Part shown: positions 47,120-53,289 of the stretch, one piece after another | How the letters are laid out: each line of letters starts with the position of its first letter | Position numbering within the stretch: the first letter of the stretch is position 1 | Assembly: GCA_965243395.1 (NCBI GenBank) | Contig: CBDEUS010000002.1 | Span: 1,088,001 to 1,152,000 of the forward strand | Origin: Gammaproteobacteria bacterium | Lineage (GTDB): Bacteria > Pseudomonadota > Gammaproteobacteria > UBA4575 | DNA: 64,000 nucleotides | Direction of reading: 5' to 3' | The notes under the pieces: generated by a model | The model's input: the letters and a program-made list of their open reading frames with translations, nothing else | What the model was told of the DNA's origin: nothing | Database searches by the model: none | Program-made: the position numbers and the translations under genes

Positions 47120-47599
47120 TTAAGAACTTTCTACTTTCATCATTGATTGTAGATAATTTTCCATGCCCACACGATCAATTCGCTCAAACTGAGTTTCAAT
47201 CCAATCGATATGTTCTTCCTCGTTTTCAAGTATTTCTTCGAATAGTTCTCTAGAAATGTAGTCGGATACTTCTTCACAATATGCAATAGCTTCTTTTAAA
47301 TCTGGTACAGCAATTTGCTCCATTTTTAAATCACACTCCAACATTTCTTTTGGGTTTTCACCGATAAAAATCTTTCCAATATCTTGTAAGTTCGGAAGAC
47401 CTTCTAAAAACAAAATTCTTTCGATGAGCATATCTGCATGTTTCATCTCATCGATTGATTCGTGATATTCGTAATCATTGAGTTTTTCTAAGCCCCAATT
47501 TTTATACATGCGTGCATGTAAAAAGTACTGATTGATTGCAGATAGCTCGTTTTTTAATACTTTGTTAAGAAATTCGATTACTTTTTTGTCGCCTTGCAT
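47120..47599 (-). CDS. bfr: Bacterioferritin
   Basis: [22 protein letters not shown] (heme-ligand Met), EEEHIDW. Confidence 0.97.
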
Positions 47600-47700: not shown

Positions 47701-47719
47701 TATAATGATAATGATTTGC
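47701..47719. promoter_or_regulatory. Fur box upstream of the bfr promoter
   Basis: TATAATGATAATGATTTGC, 15/19 to GATAATGATAATCATTATC. Confidence 0.65.
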
Positions 47720-47889: not shown

Positions 47890-48093
47890 TTAGGCGTTAC
47901 ACGCAACAGGTATCAGTAAGTCAGGACTAGAAGCTTTATGTTCTTTGATGCATTTTTTCACGCAACTACCGCACTTGCCACATTGATTGGTAACCCCGAG
48001 GTTTTCACGTAACTGCCTGACTGTCTCAGAACCACGTTCAATTTCATCACGCAGTTGTGTTTCAGTGACTTGATTGCAAATACAAATATACAT
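47890..48093 (-). CDS. bfd: Bacterioferritin-associated ferredoxin
   Basis: MYICIC and CGKC [2Fe-2S] ligands; upstream of bfr. Confidence 0.95.
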   Translation of the reverse strand: MYICICNQVTETQLRDEIERGSETVRQLRENLGVTNQCGKCGSCVKKCIKEHKASSPDLLIPVACNA

Positions 48094-48103
48094 AATAGGT
48101 CTA

Positions 48104-48133
48104 ATTGTAAACGCAAATGAGAATGATTGTCAA
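48104..48133 (-). promoter_or_regulatory. Fur-repressed promoter of bfd
   Basis: TTGACA-N18-TACAAT on minus strand, overlapped by GCAAATGAGAATGATTGTC (48113-48131, 14/19 to Fur consensus). Confidence 0.75.
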
Positions 48134-48170
48134 TAACGTTTATAAACCATTCTATAATCGTAGTTTATGG

Positions 48171-48887
48171 TTATTTGCGGACGGACCAGAGCCAAATTCC
48201 TGTAAGGGAAAGAATCAATAGCAGAATAGCTGCCGCATCAATGACATATATGCCGTATTTTCCAAAAACCCTGCCACTGTGTGCATCTAATAAAAATCTC
48301 TCAAGGCTGATTTGCCGACTCATGTCATGGGTTTCTATGACTTGACGCAAGGCGGGCAGGGTAATGCTTGGAGCAACCCATTGAGGGTGTGGGCCGTTAT
48401 ATTCTTGCCAGTCAAATAGGTCTTTTGTACTTTCCCAGTACTTCGTGCCACCCCTTACCACTGTTGTACCCTTTGTAGAAATTGAAATACCTAACGGTGA
48501 TTCTTTTAAGCCATCTAATTTTGTAACTTGATCAATTAGATTTCCTTGAAAATCAGTCACGATTAAGGAACCAGATACTGCAATAATGATTTGATCGTTA
48601 TTTGTTACGGCACCAAATAACTTTTCCACATTACCAGTAATCGGTTTACCTGAGAGATAAAGGTGTTCTCCGGCGTGAGATACAGTTTGGTTGTTAAGTT
48701 GGTAGGTGATAATCGGATTAGGTTTGATACCGTAGTAACTCAACAACCATGTATTGGTTAGAAATTTAGATGGTAGGCCGAGGCCATCACTGTGTTGTAT
48801 AAAAATACCGGTAATGACTAAGAAAATAATAAAAGCTGAAGCAAGCAGTCCGATTCTGCGGTGCCATTTGTGAAGTTTTGCTGCCAT
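48171..48887 (-). CDS. PepSY-associated TM helix membrane protein (putative heme b ferric reductase)
   Basis: KWHRRIG...ITG..IQH N-terminal helix; LLDAHSGR.FG plus C-terminal TM. Confidence 0.8.
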   Translation of the reverse strand: MAAKLHKWHRRIGLLASAFIIFLVITGIFIQHSDGLGLPSKFLTNTWLLSYYGIKPNPIITYQLNNQTVSHAGEHLYLSGKPITGNVEKLFGAVTNNDQIIIAVSGSLIVTDFQGNLIDQVTKLDGLKESPLGISISTKGTTVVRGGTKYWESTKDLFDWQEYNGPHPQWVAPSITLPALRQVIETHDMSRQISLERFLLDAHSGRVFGKYGIYVIDAAAILLLILSLTGIWLWSVRK

Positions 48888-48914
48888 GCCATGATGTGTA
48901 TTTTTTGCAAAATT

Positions 48915-49445
48915 TTAGCATGAATCTTTTGTTACATGATCGTGTAACAATAGTGCCATTCTTGAAATATTTGTCACAGCATCGACAGACATGGTAGCTC
49001 CAGTAATATTATCGATTCTTCTATCTAGTTTATTTTTTTTACCTAACTTTGCATTGACAAATTGCTCGCCAAAATAATCGTGTTTTACTTCCCATCCGCG
49101 ACTTTCACGAAATATTAAAACTTTTACTTTTTCCAAGCCTTGTCCGTTTACGATGAAGCCCGTTGTGATGTAACGCTCTTTGCCGATTTCCTCTAATATC
49201 CATGCCGTTCGACATTCATTTTGCCAGTAGGGCACACGTATTTTTTTGTAGCGATGACCCAGAATTTTTTTAACTTCTTTGCCGAGATCGCCAGACAAAG
49301 TAATACGCTCAGGATCAGGTGTGGTTCCAAATGCAGTCGTCAGAAAGTCTTCAGGCGTTTGATAAACCCTGTCTTTTGCATTTACTAAAGAAATGAAACA
49401 CGTAAAAATAAAAATTAATAGAATCTTCTTCATAAAAATACTCAA
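48915..49445 (-). CDS. Exported FMN-binding domain protein
   Basis: Signal peptide, EEIGK...IT, FRESRGWEV, flavinylation motif DNITGATMS. Confidence 0.85.
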   Translation of the reverse strand: MSIFMKKILLIFIFTCFISLVNAKDRVYQTPEDFLTTAFGTTPDPERITLSGDLGKEVKKILGHRYKKIRVPYWQNECRTAWILEEIGKERYITTGFIVNGQGLEKVKVLIFRESRGWEVKHDYFGEQFVNAKLGKKNKLDRRIDNITGATMSVDAVTNISRMALLLHDHVTKDSC

Positions 49446-49478
49446 ACTTAATTCTTATATTTGTATAACTGACTCACT

Positions 49479-49513
49479 AAAAAGCCCATATCGGGTTAAT
49501 TCAATATGGGCTT
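49479..49513 (-). terminator. Intrinsic terminator between porin and FMN-binding genes
   Basis: Minus strand AAGCCCATAT-loop-ATATGGGCTTTTT. Confidence 0.7.
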
Positions 49514-49537
49514 ACAGATTTATAATACTGGATTACT

Positions 49538-50800
49538 TTAGAACATATAACCAATGCCTAAATCAAAGCCATCTAAATCGCGTCCTGCGGCCTCACCAGC
49601 CGGGTCGTGTTCACGATCACGCCAATTAGCTTTAACTACTACACTTTCGTGTGGCCACCAGTTAACACCTGCTTCAATCTCATGATATTGGTCTTGTTCA
49701 CGTGCGCCTTCTACATCTAAGAACCGTGCGTAAATTCCGACATATTCATTTAATTTGAAGCTCGGTTCAATGTACCAGCCAAATTGATCATCAAGTTCTT
49801 CTGCAGTGTCTTCAATGTCGCCACTGAAATCCCATTGAGCATACAAAGCACGTAGGCCAAATGGTCCACGGTTATATATTGCATGAGTAGTGAGTAGCGT
49901 GCCGTCGTCGATGAAGTCATCTTCTGCAGCCGTATCATCATCTTGAGTGGGATCAAACTGATGTTGTGCAGAAGCCGCTAATTCAAGACCTTGTATACCT
50001 GTGTATTTAAGTCTTCCCGTTATAGCGCCGTCACTAAAACGCTGATTGGATAATTTACCTCGAGCGCTTCGAACACGGCCACTAAAACCAGAAAAGTTTA
50101 AACCTGAGGTATACGCAAGATCGGCACTCAATCCATTATCGAACGTCATTGTTCCTCCTATTCCACCTTCCCACCAGGTTGCTGGAATAATAATACTTTC
50201 AACTCCATTGCGCTCAACACCATAAAATGTAGGAGGTTCATGCGTTTCATTTAATATACCTACCGGCTGAAGGAAAACACCTCCACGCACCTGAGCGTTT
50301 TCATTTACATCATATTCTATGAAAGCTTGTTCTATTTCGACTTCACCATCGAGAGGTTCGCCATCAGCTTCTACACCACCATGTTCAATTTCAAACTCAG
50401 ATACGAACCGTAGGTCATCAGTAAATTCTTTACCTATAAATAAAACGAAACGATGTAGATCGATTTCTTCTAAATCTCGGTCACTATCGTCCGCATCATA
50501 GTTGTTGTAATGAACTTCACCGTATCCTCCAAGTGAAATACCTTCAAAGACATCGAGCGGACTGTCTTCCACCACTTCCGCGGTAGCTGTGGCAATTTCT
50601 GTAGCTTCTTCCGCTTTTTCTTCAGCGCGGGTGGCTTTTTCAATTGCTTCTTTTTGTTGAGACATTAAGTACTCAACTGCTTTTTTTAGATTTTCATATT
50701 CTTCTCGGTCAACTGTAATTTTTTCTGCATTTGCAGGTGCAATCAAAACAGTAATAGCCAGAAGTAATACAAACTTGATTAGGATTTTTTGAACAATCAT
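49538..50800 (-). CDS. Outer membrane porin with N-terminal coiled coil, very acidic
   Basis: Signal peptide, coiled coil, GGYGEVHY, DLHRFVL, ETHEPPTFYGVER, terminal GIGYMF beta-signal. Confidence 0.82.
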   Translation of the reverse strand: MIVQKILIKFVLLLAITVLIAPANAEKITVDREEYENLKKAVEYLMSQQKEAIEKATRAEEKAEEATEIATATAEVVEDSPLDVFEGISLGGYGEVHYNNYDADDSDRDLEEIDLHRFVLFIGKEFTDDLRFVSEFEIEHGGVEADGEPLDGEVEIEQAFIEYDVNENAQVRGGVFLQPVGILNETHEPPTFYGVERNGVESIIIPATWWEGGIGGTMTFDNGLSADLAYTSGLNFSGFSGRVRSARGKLSNQRFSDGAITGRLKYTGIQGLELAASAQHQFDPTQDDDTAAEDDFIDDGTLLTTHAIYNRGPFGLRALYAQWDFSGDIEDTAEELDDQFGWYIEPSFKLNEYVGIYARFLDVEGAREQDQYHEIEAGVNWWPHESVVVKANWRDREHDPAGEAAGRDLDGFDLGIGYMF

Positions 50801-50882
50801 TTATTTCTCCCTTAAATAGCTGATCGATGGCATGGCTATAATTTTTGCTAGCCTGAGGTTATTTGCGAATGTTTTTATTAAT

Positions 50883-50907
50883 ACTAATGAGAATGATTCG
50901 CATTTGT
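50883..50907. promoter_or_regulatory. Fur box upstream of porin operon
   Basis: ACTAATGAGAATGATTCGCATTTGT: two overlapping 19-mers (13/19 and 12/19), about 85 bp upstream of the porin ATG. Confidence 0.7.
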
Positions 50908-51012: not shown

Positions 51013-51729
51013 ATGAAATTCAAACAAATCCTTATAAATAGTGTGCTTTCTTTAGCGTTATTTTGTTCGAGTTTTTATCTTGCTTGGTTGATAAGCGTTC
51101 AGAATAATTTTTTATATTCAACTTGGTATGAAGTTTTAGATATCCAAAAGACAATTGAACGTTATGGGCCACAAAACAAGTTCAGAGATGGTTTTGAAAA
51201 GCTTGATAAGGCAGAGCATGTTCAATTATTTAATGGAATTGTGAAAGCAATTCAAAATAACGGTAACGGCCTTGAGAAACTCGAATATACAAAGACTAAT
51301 AGCAAGGAAAAGTTATTAACTAATGCTGAAGTTATACATTTGCAAGATGTTGCGAATTTAATAACAAAAATCAAGTATTCAGCACTAGCCGGGTTTATCA
51401 CAGTTGCTGTCTTATTGGGCGTTATGTTTTTAACTAATGTCGCAATCAGTACATTAAGAGCCCATCTGTTGGGTGGTGTTGGGGTAATTATTTTATTAAC
51501 TGTTTTGATATTTATTGTTGGACCAACTAACGTATTTTATTGGGGGCATGAACTAATTTTTCCTGATAATCATCAATGGTTTTTTTATTATGAAGAATCG
51601 TTAATGAGTACCATGATGAAAGCACCAGTACTTTTTGGTCCTATTGCACTTCAACTTTTATTTTTGACAATGCTTTTGTGGATAATGTTTTTAGTGCTTA
51701 TTAGAAAAATGACAAATTCAATTGCGTAG
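51013..51729 (+). CDS. DUF1461 / Lit (lipoprotein intramolecular transacylase)-like membrane protein
   Basis: Four TM segments, EVIHLQDV and GHELIF His motifs, HQWFF. Confidence 0.75.
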   Translation: MKFKQILINSVLSLALFCSSFYLAWLISVQNNFLYSTWYEVLDIQKTIERYGPQNKFRDGFEKLDKAEHVQLFNGIVKAIQNNGNGLEKLEYTKTNSKEKLLTNAEVIHLQDVANLITKIKYSALAGFITVAVLLGVMFLTNVAISTLRAHLLGGVGVIILLTVLIFIVGPTNVFYWGHELIFPDNHQWFFYYEESLMSTMMKAPVLFGPIALQLLFLTMLLWIMFLVLIRKMTNSIA

Positions 51730-51732
51730 TAA

Positions 51733-52152
51733 TTATTTTGTGCAGTTATCGGGGTTATTACAAATACCATAAATAATCAAGGCATGATCCGTAATTCTAA
51801 ACCCTTCTTTTTTAGCAATTTTATTTTGCTTATCTTCAATTTCATCATCAACGAACTCAACAATTTTTCCACATTTCACGCATACTATGTGATCGTGATG
51901 ATGTCCTCTTTCGAGCTCAAATACAGCTTGCCCTGATTCAAAATGATGTCGATTCACAAGTGATGCAGACTCGAATTGAGTGAGAACACGGTAAATTGTC
52001 GCCAAGCCTATCTCATCACCGGAATCCAGAAGGATTTTGTAGATATCTTCTGCACTTAAGTGGCGTTCGCTAGAATTTTCTAAGATTTCTAGAATTTTCA
52101 TTCTAGGCAAAGTGACTTTTAGTCCGGCGCGTTTTAGATCTTGGTTCTCCAT
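51733..52152 (-). CDS. fur: Ferric uptake regulator Fur
   Basis: LKRAGLKVTLPR, HLSAED, GLATIYR, HHHDH, CVKC; ATG at 52152. Confidence 0.97.
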   Translation of the reverse strand: MENQDLKRAGLKVTLPRMKILEILENSSERHLSAEDIYKILLDSGDEIGLATIYRVLTQFESASLVNRHHFESGQAVFELERGHHHDHIVCVKCGKIVEFVDDEIEDKQNKIAKKEGFRITDHALIIYGICNNPDNCTK

Positions 52153-52361
52153 CTGCAAAATTCTATCTTATTTGGAGAACACTTGCCTGGCTGATTAAAG
52201 CTAGCGGAGGAGGGCTTTAATGTGGCTTGGTAGTGTGGAGTTGCAAGGAACAAACAGTGCTACTCATGAAGCGAACCTAGCTATTAGCTGTTTTATAACA
52301 AATATCTGCATATATCATGTTATAAAAAGAGATTGTTATGGCTTGGATCGCGAACCTTTTG

Positions 52362-52544
52362 TTATTTTGTTAATAATAATTTGTTATTACTTGTAATTTG
52401 TAAAATATATTTATCACCTTGATGATTTAAGGTTACTCTTTTCTTTCCTTGAAAGATTTTTTCAACATTAATGATATCAAGTGCATCATTAGGCGAAATT
52501 TTTTGTAATTTAATTGTTTTATTTGCAGGAGTAGAGATATTCAT
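52362..52544 (-). CDS. hemP: Hemin uptake protein HemP/HmuP
   Basis: 60 aa ending HQGDKYILQITSNNKLLLTK (KLxLTK signature). Confidence 0.88.
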   Translation of the reverse strand: MNISTPANKTIKLQKISPNDALDIINVEKIFQGKKRVTLNHQGDKYILQITSNNKLLLTK

Positions 52545-52555
52545 AGCCGATTAAA

Positions 52556-52831
52556 TTAGTGGCAAACATGCACAGGTTTTATTACTTGGGTACCTAAATA
52601 TTCTATATATATACAGAATTTACCGGTGTGATCATTCAGTACACCTATTTGTACCTGACCCGAGTTAATTGCATGCAGCATAGTAAGTTCTGATTCACAA
52701 AATGAGCGAGCGACAATATCAATGTCTTGAATAAGAGTAGATTTTATCTTTTCAAACTCGGGAGGGTTAAAGTCCACGAGGTTTCGATTTATAAGTTGAT
52801 CGGGTTTTACAGTGCAATGAACTGATGCCAT
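52556..52831 (-). CDS. Hypothetical protein with His/Cys-rich termini, upstream of hemP
   Basis: 91 aa; AAGGA RBS; 11 bp from hemP; downstream of Fur box. Confidence 0.6.
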   Translation of the reverse strand: MASVHCTVKPDQLINRNLVDFNPPEFEKIKSTLIQDIDIVARSFCESELTMLHAINSGQVQIGVLNDHTGKFCIYIEYLGTQVIKPVHVCH

Positions 52832-52843
52832 TAGTTATCCTTG

Positions 52844-52908
52844 TTGAGATTTACCATATTGCAAATATTAATACGAATGATTATCATTTGCAATATGGTA
52901 AATCTCAA
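52844..52908. promoter_or_regulatory. Perfect 23-bp inverted repeat around a Fur box, forming mirror-image promoters on both strands
   Basis: TTGAGATTTACCATATTGCAAAT (52844-52866) and exact reverse complement (52886-52908); plus TTGCAA-N17-TATCAT, minus TTGCAA-N17-TAATAT; core AATGATTATCATT. Confidence 0.75.
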
Positions 52909-52917
52909 AATCATCCT

Positions 52918-53289
52918 TTGTTTAGCTTAAATGCTTGGTTTGAGCGCTCTAGACCTTACTTAGAGCTGCGTAATAACTACACAAATAAAGTGGTTTTAAA
53001 ACTTAATGGTGAAAGGCTACATGAAGTCTTACAAGATATTGGTTATGACTATGAGGATCTTTTACGAAATGGCGCTTCATCAGAGTTGATTAAAGCTCTG
53101 TTATTGGCATCAATTAAGGATTCTCCAATTAAACTTGATTCAAAAAGCGAAATTCTGAAAAAAGTCACGCCTTTTCCCAAAATAAAAAAAGCCCAACATG
53201 CTTATTTTAAAAGCAGTAAATTCGAAAAAAATGACAAAGTGATATATCTAGACCGTATTTTATTGAACTCAAAAGCTAGAAAGGCTTAA
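52918..53289 (+). CDS. Hypothetical protein (start uncertain)
   Basis: Protein-like from FSLNAWFERSRPYLELR onward; track start 52825 overlaps the divergent gene and promoter, so TTG 52918 is preferred. Confidence 0.5.
   Translation: MFSLNAWFERSRPYLELRNNYTNKVVLKLNGERLHEVLQDIGYDYEDLLRNGASSELIKALLLASIKDSPIKLDSKSEILKKVTPFPKIKKAQHAYFKSSKFEKNDKVIYLDRILLNSKARKA

Follow-up and report, generated by a model that had tools for sequence, protein, structure and literature searches.

In this study, we analysed a stretch of 64,000 nucleotides (the window; G000:C2:1088001-1152000) from the 2.58 Mb genome of a gammaproteobacterium of the UBA4575 lineage. The genome is assembled in two contigs, has a G+C content of about 38% and is rated 100% complete. 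Three adjacent genes of the window encode an acidic outer-membrane porin, an exported protein of the FMN_bind family and a small membrane protein of the PepSY_TM type. This triad is a real, widespread and uncharacterised variant of the PepSY-like flavinylated iron-reducing systems. We propose, with a probability of roughly 0.6, that Fur represses this envelope module and that it readies iron for import through reduction in the periplasm. The triad and its putative control elements are organised as follows:

50883..50907, minus strand: putative Fur-type operator made of two overlapping 19-mers (matrix scores of 19.1 and 17.4 bits)
49538..50800, minus strand: gene of an acidic outer-membrane porin with 16 predicted strands, 420 amino acids (aa) (Porin_O_P match, AlphaFold2 (AF2) model, Foldseek)
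49477..49512, minus strand: terminator-like hairpin with T run, candidate attenuator (-15.9 kcal/mol)
48915..49445, minus strand: gene of the exported FMN_bind protein, 176 aa counted from TTG (PF04205, 24.7 bits)
48171..48887, minus strand: gene of a half-size FoxB-type PepSY_TM membrane protein, 238 aa (PF03929, 39.2 bits)

A first-pass annotation, made from the letters of this DNA, had described here a Fur box, an acidic barrel, an internal hairpin, a flavinylation motif and a PepSY_TM protein with conserved His, with bfd and bfr following on the same strand and no apbE gene close by. All of these elements are present where they had been placed, and the minus strand encodes the triad as well as bfd and bfr. 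Among 11 open reading frames (ORFs) scanned around the cluster, none matched ApbE, DUF2271 or DUF4198.

Conservation of the gene unit and its Fur-type operator

From the alignment of the FMN_bind relatives, 80 related loci were collected on contigs of one genome per species. Nearly all belong to uncultured Gammaproteobacteria, and the labelled lineages include Thiotrichales, Thiohalobacter, Thiogranum, Ectothiorhodospiraceae, sponge-associated bacteria, a Gallionella and a Zetaproteobacteria member. One of the carriers, Thiohalobacter thiocyanaticus Hrh1 (L051), is culturable. In tblastn searches with the window proteins, the porin gene was found upstream in 76/80 loci and the PepSY_TM gene downstream in 77/80. 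Two of the four loci without porin lie at a contig edge (L063 and L064), L036 has feoB instead and L068 has none. Of the three loci without PepSY_TM, L013 and L024 again lie at a contig edge and L027 has another ORF. This ORF (L027 6474-7037, 187 aa) is unrelated and has no Pfam match. In L044 (4643-5921) and L056 (4057-5218) the porin is split into two ORFs by a frameshift or an assembly error. The order porin, FMN_bind, PepSY_TM on one strand is kept in all loci with three complete ORFs (71/71), and the median gap is 78 nucleotides (nt) between the first two genes and 1.5 nt between the last two.

The hairpin spans 49483-49512 in the gap that separates the porin gene from the FMN_bind gene, with a T run after it; owing to its long loop, a simple terminator scan overlooked it. 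In 38 of 75 loci, one of them the window, the porin gene is followed by a hairpin of at least this kind, with an energy of -8 kcal/mol or lower and a T run. A terminator-like structure is present in the place of the internal terminator of the first-pass annotation, and it would fit an excess of porin over the two other proteins. Potentially, the hairpin could also be a full terminator, and the porin a general one that happens to lie beside an unrelated two-gene redox pair; L068, with the pair but no porin, and L036, with feoB in the porin place, would agree with this. We give this explanation next to no weight. The porin stands upstream in nearly all loci, with two of the four misses at contig ends and relatives down to 36% porin identity, the gene order is fixed, half of the loci have no hairpin, and the Fur-type site precedes the porin and not the pair.

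This putative operator is an imperfect 9-1-9 inverted repeat with the core AATGCGAATCATTCTCATT at 50886-50904. Its two overlapping 19-mers (50883-50901 and 50889-50907) lie 83-107 nt upstream of the porin ATG. A search with the E. coli Fur consensus at up to 3 mismatches gave no site in the window, and the porin operator was not recovered at up to 4 mismatches either, because it has 6 mismatches to the E. coli 19-mer. Three checks nevertheless speak against chance. First, among the 200-nt regions upstream of 69 porin genes, one from the window and 68 from related loci, 41 have a Fur-type site with up to 6 mismatches, compared with 91 of 1380 random 200-nt windows from the same loci. Second, in a count free of any consensus, the most enriched 8-mers were ATGAGAAT/ATTCTCAT, present in 30/69 upstream regions and in 38/3879 background windows; these and the further enriched AATGCAAA and GAATCATT all tile into GCAAATGAGAATCATTCTCATTTGC. 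Third, a Fur matrix derived solely from porin-upstream sites of other genomes was scanned over the whole genome and gave 89 sites of at least 12 bits, with the two porin 19-mers at rank 3 (19.1 bits) and rank 6 (17.4 bits). Five of the six best sites of the genome lie within the window (52873, 50883, 48113, 47701 and 50889). The conserved site thus agrees with the iron control of the porin that had been assumed, as far as sequence can tell.

The window holds a small iron island; at its centre is fur, located some 0.9 kb upstream from the operator of the porin gene. The further features are:

51733..52158, minus strand: fur, ferric uptake regulator (NF006999, 209.9 bits)
51013..51729, plus strand: gene of a Lit-like / TIGR01906 membrane protein, divergent from the porin promoter
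48113..48137, minus strand: Fur-like site over the -35 element of the bfd promoter (17.9 bits)
47890..48093, minus strand: bfd, bacterioferritin-associated ferredoxin (PF04324, E-value 1.1e-9)
47701..47719, minus strand: Fur-like site upstream of bfr (17.5 bits)
47120..47599, minus strand: bfr, bacterioferritin (TIGR00754, 256.6 bits)

The bfd and bfr sites have 4 mismatches each to the E. coli 19-mer. The bfd promoter is sigma-70-like, matching at 11/12 positions (TTGACA-18-TACAAT), and the bfr site is located about 100 nt upstream of its gene, apart from the bfd site. Each gene has a Fur-like site of its own, and bfd and bfr need not be co-transcribed with the triad. A bfr gene lies within the 6-kb flank in 23/80 loci. 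The second-best Fur-type site of the genome (19.8 bits) is found at 52867-52891 of the window, between a 91-aa ORF with hemP (52831..52362, minus strand) and a gene of the PA4570 family (52825..53289, plus strand). The Lit-like gene and the porin operator have one intergenic region in common, and a homologue of this gene occurs near the triad or near bfd-bfr in 8/80 loci. The imelysin-like family is tied to iron uptake in other systems, and in 6/80 loci an imelysin-like (Peptidase_M75) gene lies upstream of and divergent from the porin (L006, L011, L013, L017, L024 and L046). The other frequent neighbours are mostly housekeeping genes (HAD, NUDIX, HemJ, CLC, PtsP); these are also found in the window and mark conserved synteny and not function. 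Outside the window, the matrix also picks a site before an ExbB-type gene (G000:C2:379667-379685, 16.6 bits) and one before the riboflavin-synthesis gene ribD (G000:C1:912709-912727, 16.1 bits). If the latter site is active, an iron-controlled flavin supply would suit a flavin-based reductase.

Predicted structures of the three proteins and the putative source of the flavin

The porin matches the Pfam family Porin_O_P with 35.6 bits (cut-off 20.9, E-value 8.5e-9). Its signal peptide ends in ANA, and its C-terminal residue is Phe, as in 67/67 porin relatives. The AF2 model (predicted local distance difference test score, pLDDT, 83) is a 16-strand barrel, and a Foldseek search with it retrieved OmpC, OmpK36, OmpF and OprP at E-values of about 1e-13 to 1e-12 (OprP, 2o4v: E-value 2.1e-12, TMq 0.60). 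The mature protein contains 85 Asp/Glu versus 30 Lys/Arg residues and the barrel 68 versus 22, which gives the barrel a net charge of -46; 67 family members have barrel charges between -48 and -7 (median -28). The model and the charge agree with the first description of a strongly Asp/Glu-rich beta-barrel that is not of the TonB-dependent type. In front of the barrel, the porin has an N-terminal extension of about 60 aa, for which AF2 predicts a helix at residues 32-61 with modest confidence. A pre-barrel segment of 53-105 residues, rich in Glu, Gln, Lys, Arg and Ala, is present in all 67 members.

The invariant acidic and His residues of the porin are E95, E135, E137, E139, E157, H187 and E188. 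On strands 1-4, invariant or nearly invariant residues alternate with hydrophobic ones (Y93, E95, H97 and N99; D114 and H116; E135, E137 and E139; E155 and E157). The long loop after strand 5 (residues 177-210) bears the invariant N184, H187, E188, E196 and R197. Invariant Glu and His residues are located at positions of lumen parity, and some invariant Arg residues remain. A selectivity of the porin for cations or metals is therefore a reasonable inference from the residue pattern.

Alternatively, porin and flavoprotein together might form an electron outlet to external Fe(III) or to flavin shuttles, in analogy to porin-cytochrome conduits and to PplA of Gram-positive bacteria, and would then serve respiration or extracellular electron transfer. 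In favour of this, the unit always starts with the porin gene, and flavinylated extracytosolic proteins carry out extracellular electron transfer in other bacteria (PMC8238504). However, a 16-strand barrel with an internal constriction loop is too narrow to hold a protein, neither multihaem cytochromes nor NADH dehydrogenases recur among the neighbour clusters, and the Fur-type site and the linkage to bfr and importer genes point to assimilation. Such an outlet is therefore very improbable.

The second protein of the triad matches PF04205 with 24.7 bits at a cut-off of 22. It is annotated from a TTG at 49445, and the ATG at 49433 is the likelier start. The N-terminal signal sequence ends in VNA. 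Its flavinylation motif reads D-N-I-T-G-A-T-M-S, with Thr151 as predicted attachment site of flavin mononucleotide (FMN). In the family, the motif is D-x-I-[ST]-G-A-T-[LM]-S-V, and [ST]148-G149-A150-T151 is kept in 74/74 relatives. The exported protein with an [S/T]GA[S/T] motif named in the first-pass annotation is in line with these results. A profile of this FMN_bind subfamily gave no match among PDB sequences at an E-value of up to 1, and no fused or longer form (309-2000 aa) was found, which is weak evidence.

An attached flavin would require ApbE, which had been suggested to act in trans. Two apbE genes were located in the genome, both outside the cluster. One is an orphan gene (G000:C1:1060647-1061471), and its product has a clear signal peptide. 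The protein of the triad is the sole PF04205 match of the genome, and neither NQR nor RNF (NqrB/RnfD) was found in the genome; the orphan ApbE is thus left without another obvious FMN_bind substrate. The second apbE gene belongs to a cluster of genes for a thioredoxin-like protein, DUF3570, ApbE and an 80-aa ORF (G000:C2:475677-478887; L102 5678-8888), which lies outside the window and corresponds to the DUF3570 type of flavinylation cluster reported by Meheust et al. (PMC8238504). As translated from the first start codon, this DUF3570-linked ApbE has no signal peptide.

The co-occurrence of ApbE was determined in 250 genomes from 239 genera, drawn evenly from the class Gammaproteobacteria. 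The FMN_bind subfamily is present in 48/250 genomes and 45/239 genera. ApbE occurs in 163/250 genomes, comprising 48/48 carriers of the subfamily and 115/202 non-carriers; kin among the carriers are not independent, and G039, a genome flagged as unpublished, is counted with the non-carriers. Among the matches listed, the genes of ApbE and of the FMN_bind protein never lie close together. Two of the related loci, L008 and L009, have a convergent ApbE gene directly after the PepSY_TM gene, and its product has 59% identity to the orphan copy and 27% to the DUF3570-linked copy. The FMN_bind subfamily thus has its ApbE in trans as a rule, with exceptions such as L008 and L009. The DUF3570-linked ApbE was set aside as flavin donor, since the ApbE of these two loci matches the orphan copy and the linked copy has no signal peptide.

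The third protein matches PF03929 (39.2 bits) and PF16357 (26.7 bits), and the PepSY domain PF03413 gave no match in it. Its profile aligns with transmembrane (TM) helices TM1 (residues 5-35) and TM4 (337-375) of FoxB (7abw) at an E-value of 1e-5 and more weakly with TM2 and TM3, which equates it with one of the two repeats of FoxB. Three His residues are conserved among the relatives, H9 in 72/73, H32 in 65/73 and H203 in 73/73; in the FoxB alignment, H9 falls on the His of LHRYVGL and H203 on that of IHGGR. This agrees with the original assignment as a PepSY_TM protein with conserved His. In the AF2 model (pLDDT 93.9), a long helix stands at either end (2-31 and 212-237), and the part between them has twelve strands in three four-stranded sheets. 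Residues 55-175 were aligned to beta-propeller blades by VIA-align (Z about 10, root-mean-square deviation 2.3-2.9 A, 102-112 residues aligned), and one of the matches, 6r5z, is a nine-bladed propeller made of three three-bladed fragments. Foldseek with the whole model gave nothing at an E-value of up to 0.001, and NHL/Kelch matches were weak. This large family is half-size throughout: at an E-value of up to 1e-30 it has 1229 representatives (50% identity), and the best 150 of them are 236-364 aa long with one full-length match each. Longer forms (418-2000 aa) were not found, which again is weak evidence. This protein would most naturally be read as a homodimer that holds two haems and forms a six-bladed propeller. 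Outside the window, three genes in a row encode a PepSY_TM-like protein of 185 aa, a DUF4405 protein of 130 aa and a CDF cation-efflux transporter (G000:C1:890647-892698; L103 4648-6699). DUF4405 was reported as a novel cytochrome family (PMC11334425), and by its gene content this row is possibly a second iron-redox set.

A complex of two membrane-protein copies, two haems and the mature flavoprotein was modelled, with the flavoprotein as the scored partner. The docking reached an ipSAE of 0.63 (0.63, 0.66 and 0.59 in the runs), versus 0.00 for the best of three controls. The mark applied for ipSAE is attained by 116/157 solved complexes and by 2/215 mismatched pairs, counts that apply only roughly here because the model used custom alignments and haem ligands. 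Contacts agreed by at least 86% between runs, and the pLDDT of the partner was at least 85. The docked flavoprotein touches both membrane-protein copies. The predicted interface joins FMN_bind residues 145, 147-149 and 152 with residues 192, 197, 201, 206-207 and 209 of the membrane protein, which flank His203. In the complex model, the flavoprotein docks on the membrane-protein dimer with its flavin site near the periplasmic His motif. The docking supports a path from haem to flavin, at the level of a model.

Proposed route of iron, its importer and competing explanations

Taken as a periplasmic iron-reducing module, the triad could work as follows. Under iron scarcity the operon would be derepressed, and the porin gene would be transcribed most strongly because the hairpin would attenuate read-through into the two downstream genes. 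The porin, taken as a TonB-independent, trimer-type channel of 16 strands with invariant Glu and His on its lumen wall and constriction loop, would let in iron that is inorganic or weakly complexed. Two copies of the 2-TM protein might assemble in the inner membrane into a FoxB-like four-helix bundle with two b-haems, in which His9 of each copy would ligate the haem of the cytoplasmic face and His203, perhaps with His32, that of the periplasmic face. The three-bladed fragments of both copies would close into a six-bladed periplasmic propeller. The orphan exported ApbE would place FMN on Thr151 of the FMN_bind protein, which would dock on the dimer with its flavin beside the periplasmic haem site. 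Electrons would then pass from the membrane via haem b and FMN to Fe(III). The released iron would be handed over to whichever inner-membrane importer is available, here most likely an ATP-binding cassette (ABC) transporter of the FutA/FbpA type and elsewhere maybe FeoB.

It is tempting to extend this proposal to a self-contained, TonB-independent iron front end that spans the envelope. It would combine a metal-selective porin whose Glu/His ladder mirrors the arginine ladder of OprP, a helical stalk reaching the reductase, a homodimeric half-FoxB cytochrome with two haems and a six-bladed propeller, a flavinylated terminal ferric reductase and interchangeable importers (FutABC or FeoB). As a whole, this extended version is tentative and in our view doubtful.

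The importer is the part of the first-pass annotation that did not hold. An Fe(II) importer had been expected to act in trans, but no FeoB was found in the genome: its FeoB_N matches are ordinary GTPases, and its only Gate-domain ORF (412 aa) has no GTPase domain. FTR1, Nramp, ZIP and ZnuA-type proteins likewise gave no match in the genome. The simple route of reduction followed by import of Fe(II) is therefore without a known last step in this organism. Instead, the genome encodes four TonB-dependent receptors and one SBP_bac_6 substrate-binding protein (SBP) with a fused double permease and an ATPase (G000:C1:159489-163347). This SBP matches Synechocystis FutA1 (2pt1) at an E-value of 4.5e-102 as well as other FutA/FbpA proteins, and a Fur-like site of 13.0 bits lies 32 nt upstream of its longest ORF. 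An orthologue (55-61% identity) directly follows PepSY_TM on the same strand in 6/80 loci (L022, L048, L055, L065, L071 and L081), with the permease next in five and the ATPase in four of them, and G161 has the same arrangement. FeoB adjoins the triad in 4/80 loci (L021, L035, L036 and L043). FutA1 and FutA2 reportedly prefer ferrous iron. For FutA of Prochlorococcus, binding of Fe(II) as well as Fe(III) was reported (Bolton et al., 2024; PMC10962944). The triad might thus be a front end that serves different importers, and judged by these genes the importer is most likely the FutA/FbpA-type ABC transporter in this organism.

Several points weigh against the proposed iron-reducing module. The genome has no match to any recognised Fe(II) importer family searched, and in the sampled genomes neither importer is enriched in carriers of the FMN_bind subfamily: FeoB occurs in 25/48 carriers and 88/202 non-carriers, and the FutA-type SBP in 17/48 and 91/202 (with G141, flagged as unpublished, counted as non-carrier). 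At least one of the two is present in 36/48 carriers and neither in 12/48. On these counts, FeoB and the FutA-type SBP were both rejected as obligatory partners, and the latter is still the best candidate in this genome. The score of the complex covers the flavoprotein and extends neither to the homodimer nor to the six-bladed propeller, and the PF04205 score of the flavoprotein is barely above the cut-off. The porin also has invariant basic residues (R117, R131, R197, R244, R247 and K390), and for this reason net charge alone cannot tell its selectivity. Furthermore, the Fur matrix scores high inside unrelated coding regions, several high-scoring sites outside the window precede truncated ORFs in ordinary genes, the top site of the genome precedes a truncated TPP-enzyme ORF, and the intergenic region of the operator belongs to the divergent Lit-like gene as well. 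Finally, the whole case is built from sequences and predicted structures.

The same hardware could also act on another substrate, such as a ferric siderophore or ferric citrate small enough for the pore, Cu(II), Mn(III/IV), a quinone or a peroxide, in which case iron regulation would reflect an indirect need. Most siderophores are large for a porin of 16 strands with a constriction loop. Moreover, the Fur-type sites are conserved, the neighbours include bfr/bfd, FeoB, FutABC and imelysin-like genes, and no copper or manganese gene recurs among the 30 most frequent neighbour clusters. Not all PepSY_TM proteins are iron enzymes, however; the Bordetella protein CrpH has a link with copper and with haem-copper oxidases (PMC13038864), and the characterised members act on ferrisiderophores and not on free iron (PMC13038864; 10.1101/2021.01.28.428567). 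We regard a different substrate as rather unlikely.

A further possibility is that the module runs in reverse and oxidises periplasmic Fe(II), poises Fe(II)/Fe(III) for loading of FutA/FbpA-type proteins or guards the periplasm from damage driven by Fe(II). Many carriers are labelled as sulfur- or iron-oxidising lineages (Thiotrichales, Thiohalobacter, Thiogranum, Gallionella, Zetaproteobacteria), the importer found next to the triad or in trans belongs to the FutA/FbpA class, and none of the Fe(II) importer families searched (FeoB, FTR1, Nramp, ZIP, ZnuA-type) matched in the genome. However, FMN has a low midpoint potential and would be a poor acceptor for electrons from Fe(II) at neutral pH, and Fur-repressed genes are typically acquisition genes. 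The FeoB genes adjoining the triad fit a production of Fe(II), and the characterised relatives all work in the reducing direction (PMC8238504; PMC13038864). This leaves the reverse role with a slim chance.

Relation to known systems and implications

By its working definition, a PepSY-like flavinylated system has a PF03929/PF16357 gene and, no more than five genes away, a gene for an exported FMN_bind, ApbE, DUF2271 or DUF3570 protein (Meheust et al., 2021; PMC8238504). In the triad, a PF03929/PF16357 gene lies next to that of an exported PF04205 protein, so that a PepSY-like membrane protein is clustered with an exported ApbE substrate as in those systems (PMC8238504). For these, iron reduction or assimilation was proposed, and Fur repression was reported for some (PMC8238504). 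Their typical cluster consists of ApbE, DUF2271 and DUF4198, sometimes with a TonB-type gene or VIT1 (PMC8238504). The composition found here is different: the substrate is an FMN_bind protein, ApbE is encoded elsewhere and an acidic porin leads the operon. The word "porin" is absent from the main text of that paper and PF07396 / Porin_O_P has no match in its three small supplementary files, and the triad may be contained in its Supplementary file 1 (PMC8238504). Our literature search found no published description of a porin/FMN_bind/PepSY_TM triad and no paper joining "PepSY", "porin" and "FMN-binding"; it gave general papers on flavinylation and on PepSY_TM proteins.

The membrane protein resembles FoxB, FpvG, FhuB, FsrB and HiuB in its TM motifs, with H-R-x-x-G where a helix begins and H-[SG]-G-R ahead of the following helix, and in the conservation of His on both membrane faces. 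FoxB is a bundle around two b-haems that are held by conserved His and is capped by two PepSY domains (10.1101/2021.01.28.428567). All PepSY_TM proteins modelled by Hachmi et al. (2026) have at least four TM segments (PMC13038864). The known PepSY_TM reductases, as described in these papers, thus have at least four TM segments in one chain and PepSY domains and are encoded beside TonB-dependent transporters, whereas the protein of the triad has two TM segments and a three-bladed fragment and is accompanied by a separate flavoprotein and a porin. Judged by the shared motifs, the triad may nevertheless work like the FoxB-type reductases.

Porins have been linked to metal uptake before. In Acidithiobacillus ferrooxidans, the Fur-controlled operon feoPABC is likewise headed by an iron-uptake porin (Quatrini et al., 2007; PMC1874648), and binding and repression by Fur were shown for its promoter (PMC1874648). 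FeoP is a porin of the OprB family directly before FeoABC, in an operon described without redox proteins (PMC1874648). In contrast, the triad begins with a Porin_O_P-type porin, its next two genes encode a flavoprotein and a cytochrome-like protein, and FeoB adjoins in few loci. The iron porins of cyanobacteria reportedly carry SLH/OprB domains, and the reductase proposed there is said to be a respiratory oxidase. Cyanobacterial uptake of inorganic iron through porins is similar to the proposed route in being TonB-independent, in placing reduction before transport and in using a FutA-class protein (PMC4390881; PMC9705863). Unlike the triad, it is not known to involve a flavinylated or PepSY_TM protein. 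OprP and OprO belong to the same Pfam family and have the same 16-strand barrel. OprP has an arginine ladder for anions, according to the title of the 2o4v entry. The porin of the triad differs from it by its negative net charge, its invariant Glu and His and its N-terminal helical extension. MnoP of Bradyrhizobium japonicum is also a metal-regulated outer-membrane channel dedicated to a divalent metal; this likeness is one of description, and MnoP has a different metal and regulator and is described without redox partners (PMC6011978).

How inorganic iron is taken up across two membranes, without or besides siderophores, is poorly understood outside cyanobacteria. If the proposal is true, the triad provides a concrete route, from a dedicated porin via a flavin/haem reductase to an ABC or Feo importer. 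The module would then offer the smallest known FoxB-type transmembrane electron conduit and, if the models hold, a natural case of a propeller built from half-size chains, as well as a candidate metal-selective relative of the phosphate porins. Reductive iron uptake has so far been argued mainly for cyanobacteria and eukaryotes; if the extended version given above holds, about one in five gammaproteobacterial families, among them many uncultured sulfur and iron oxidisers and symbionts, would be equipped with it.

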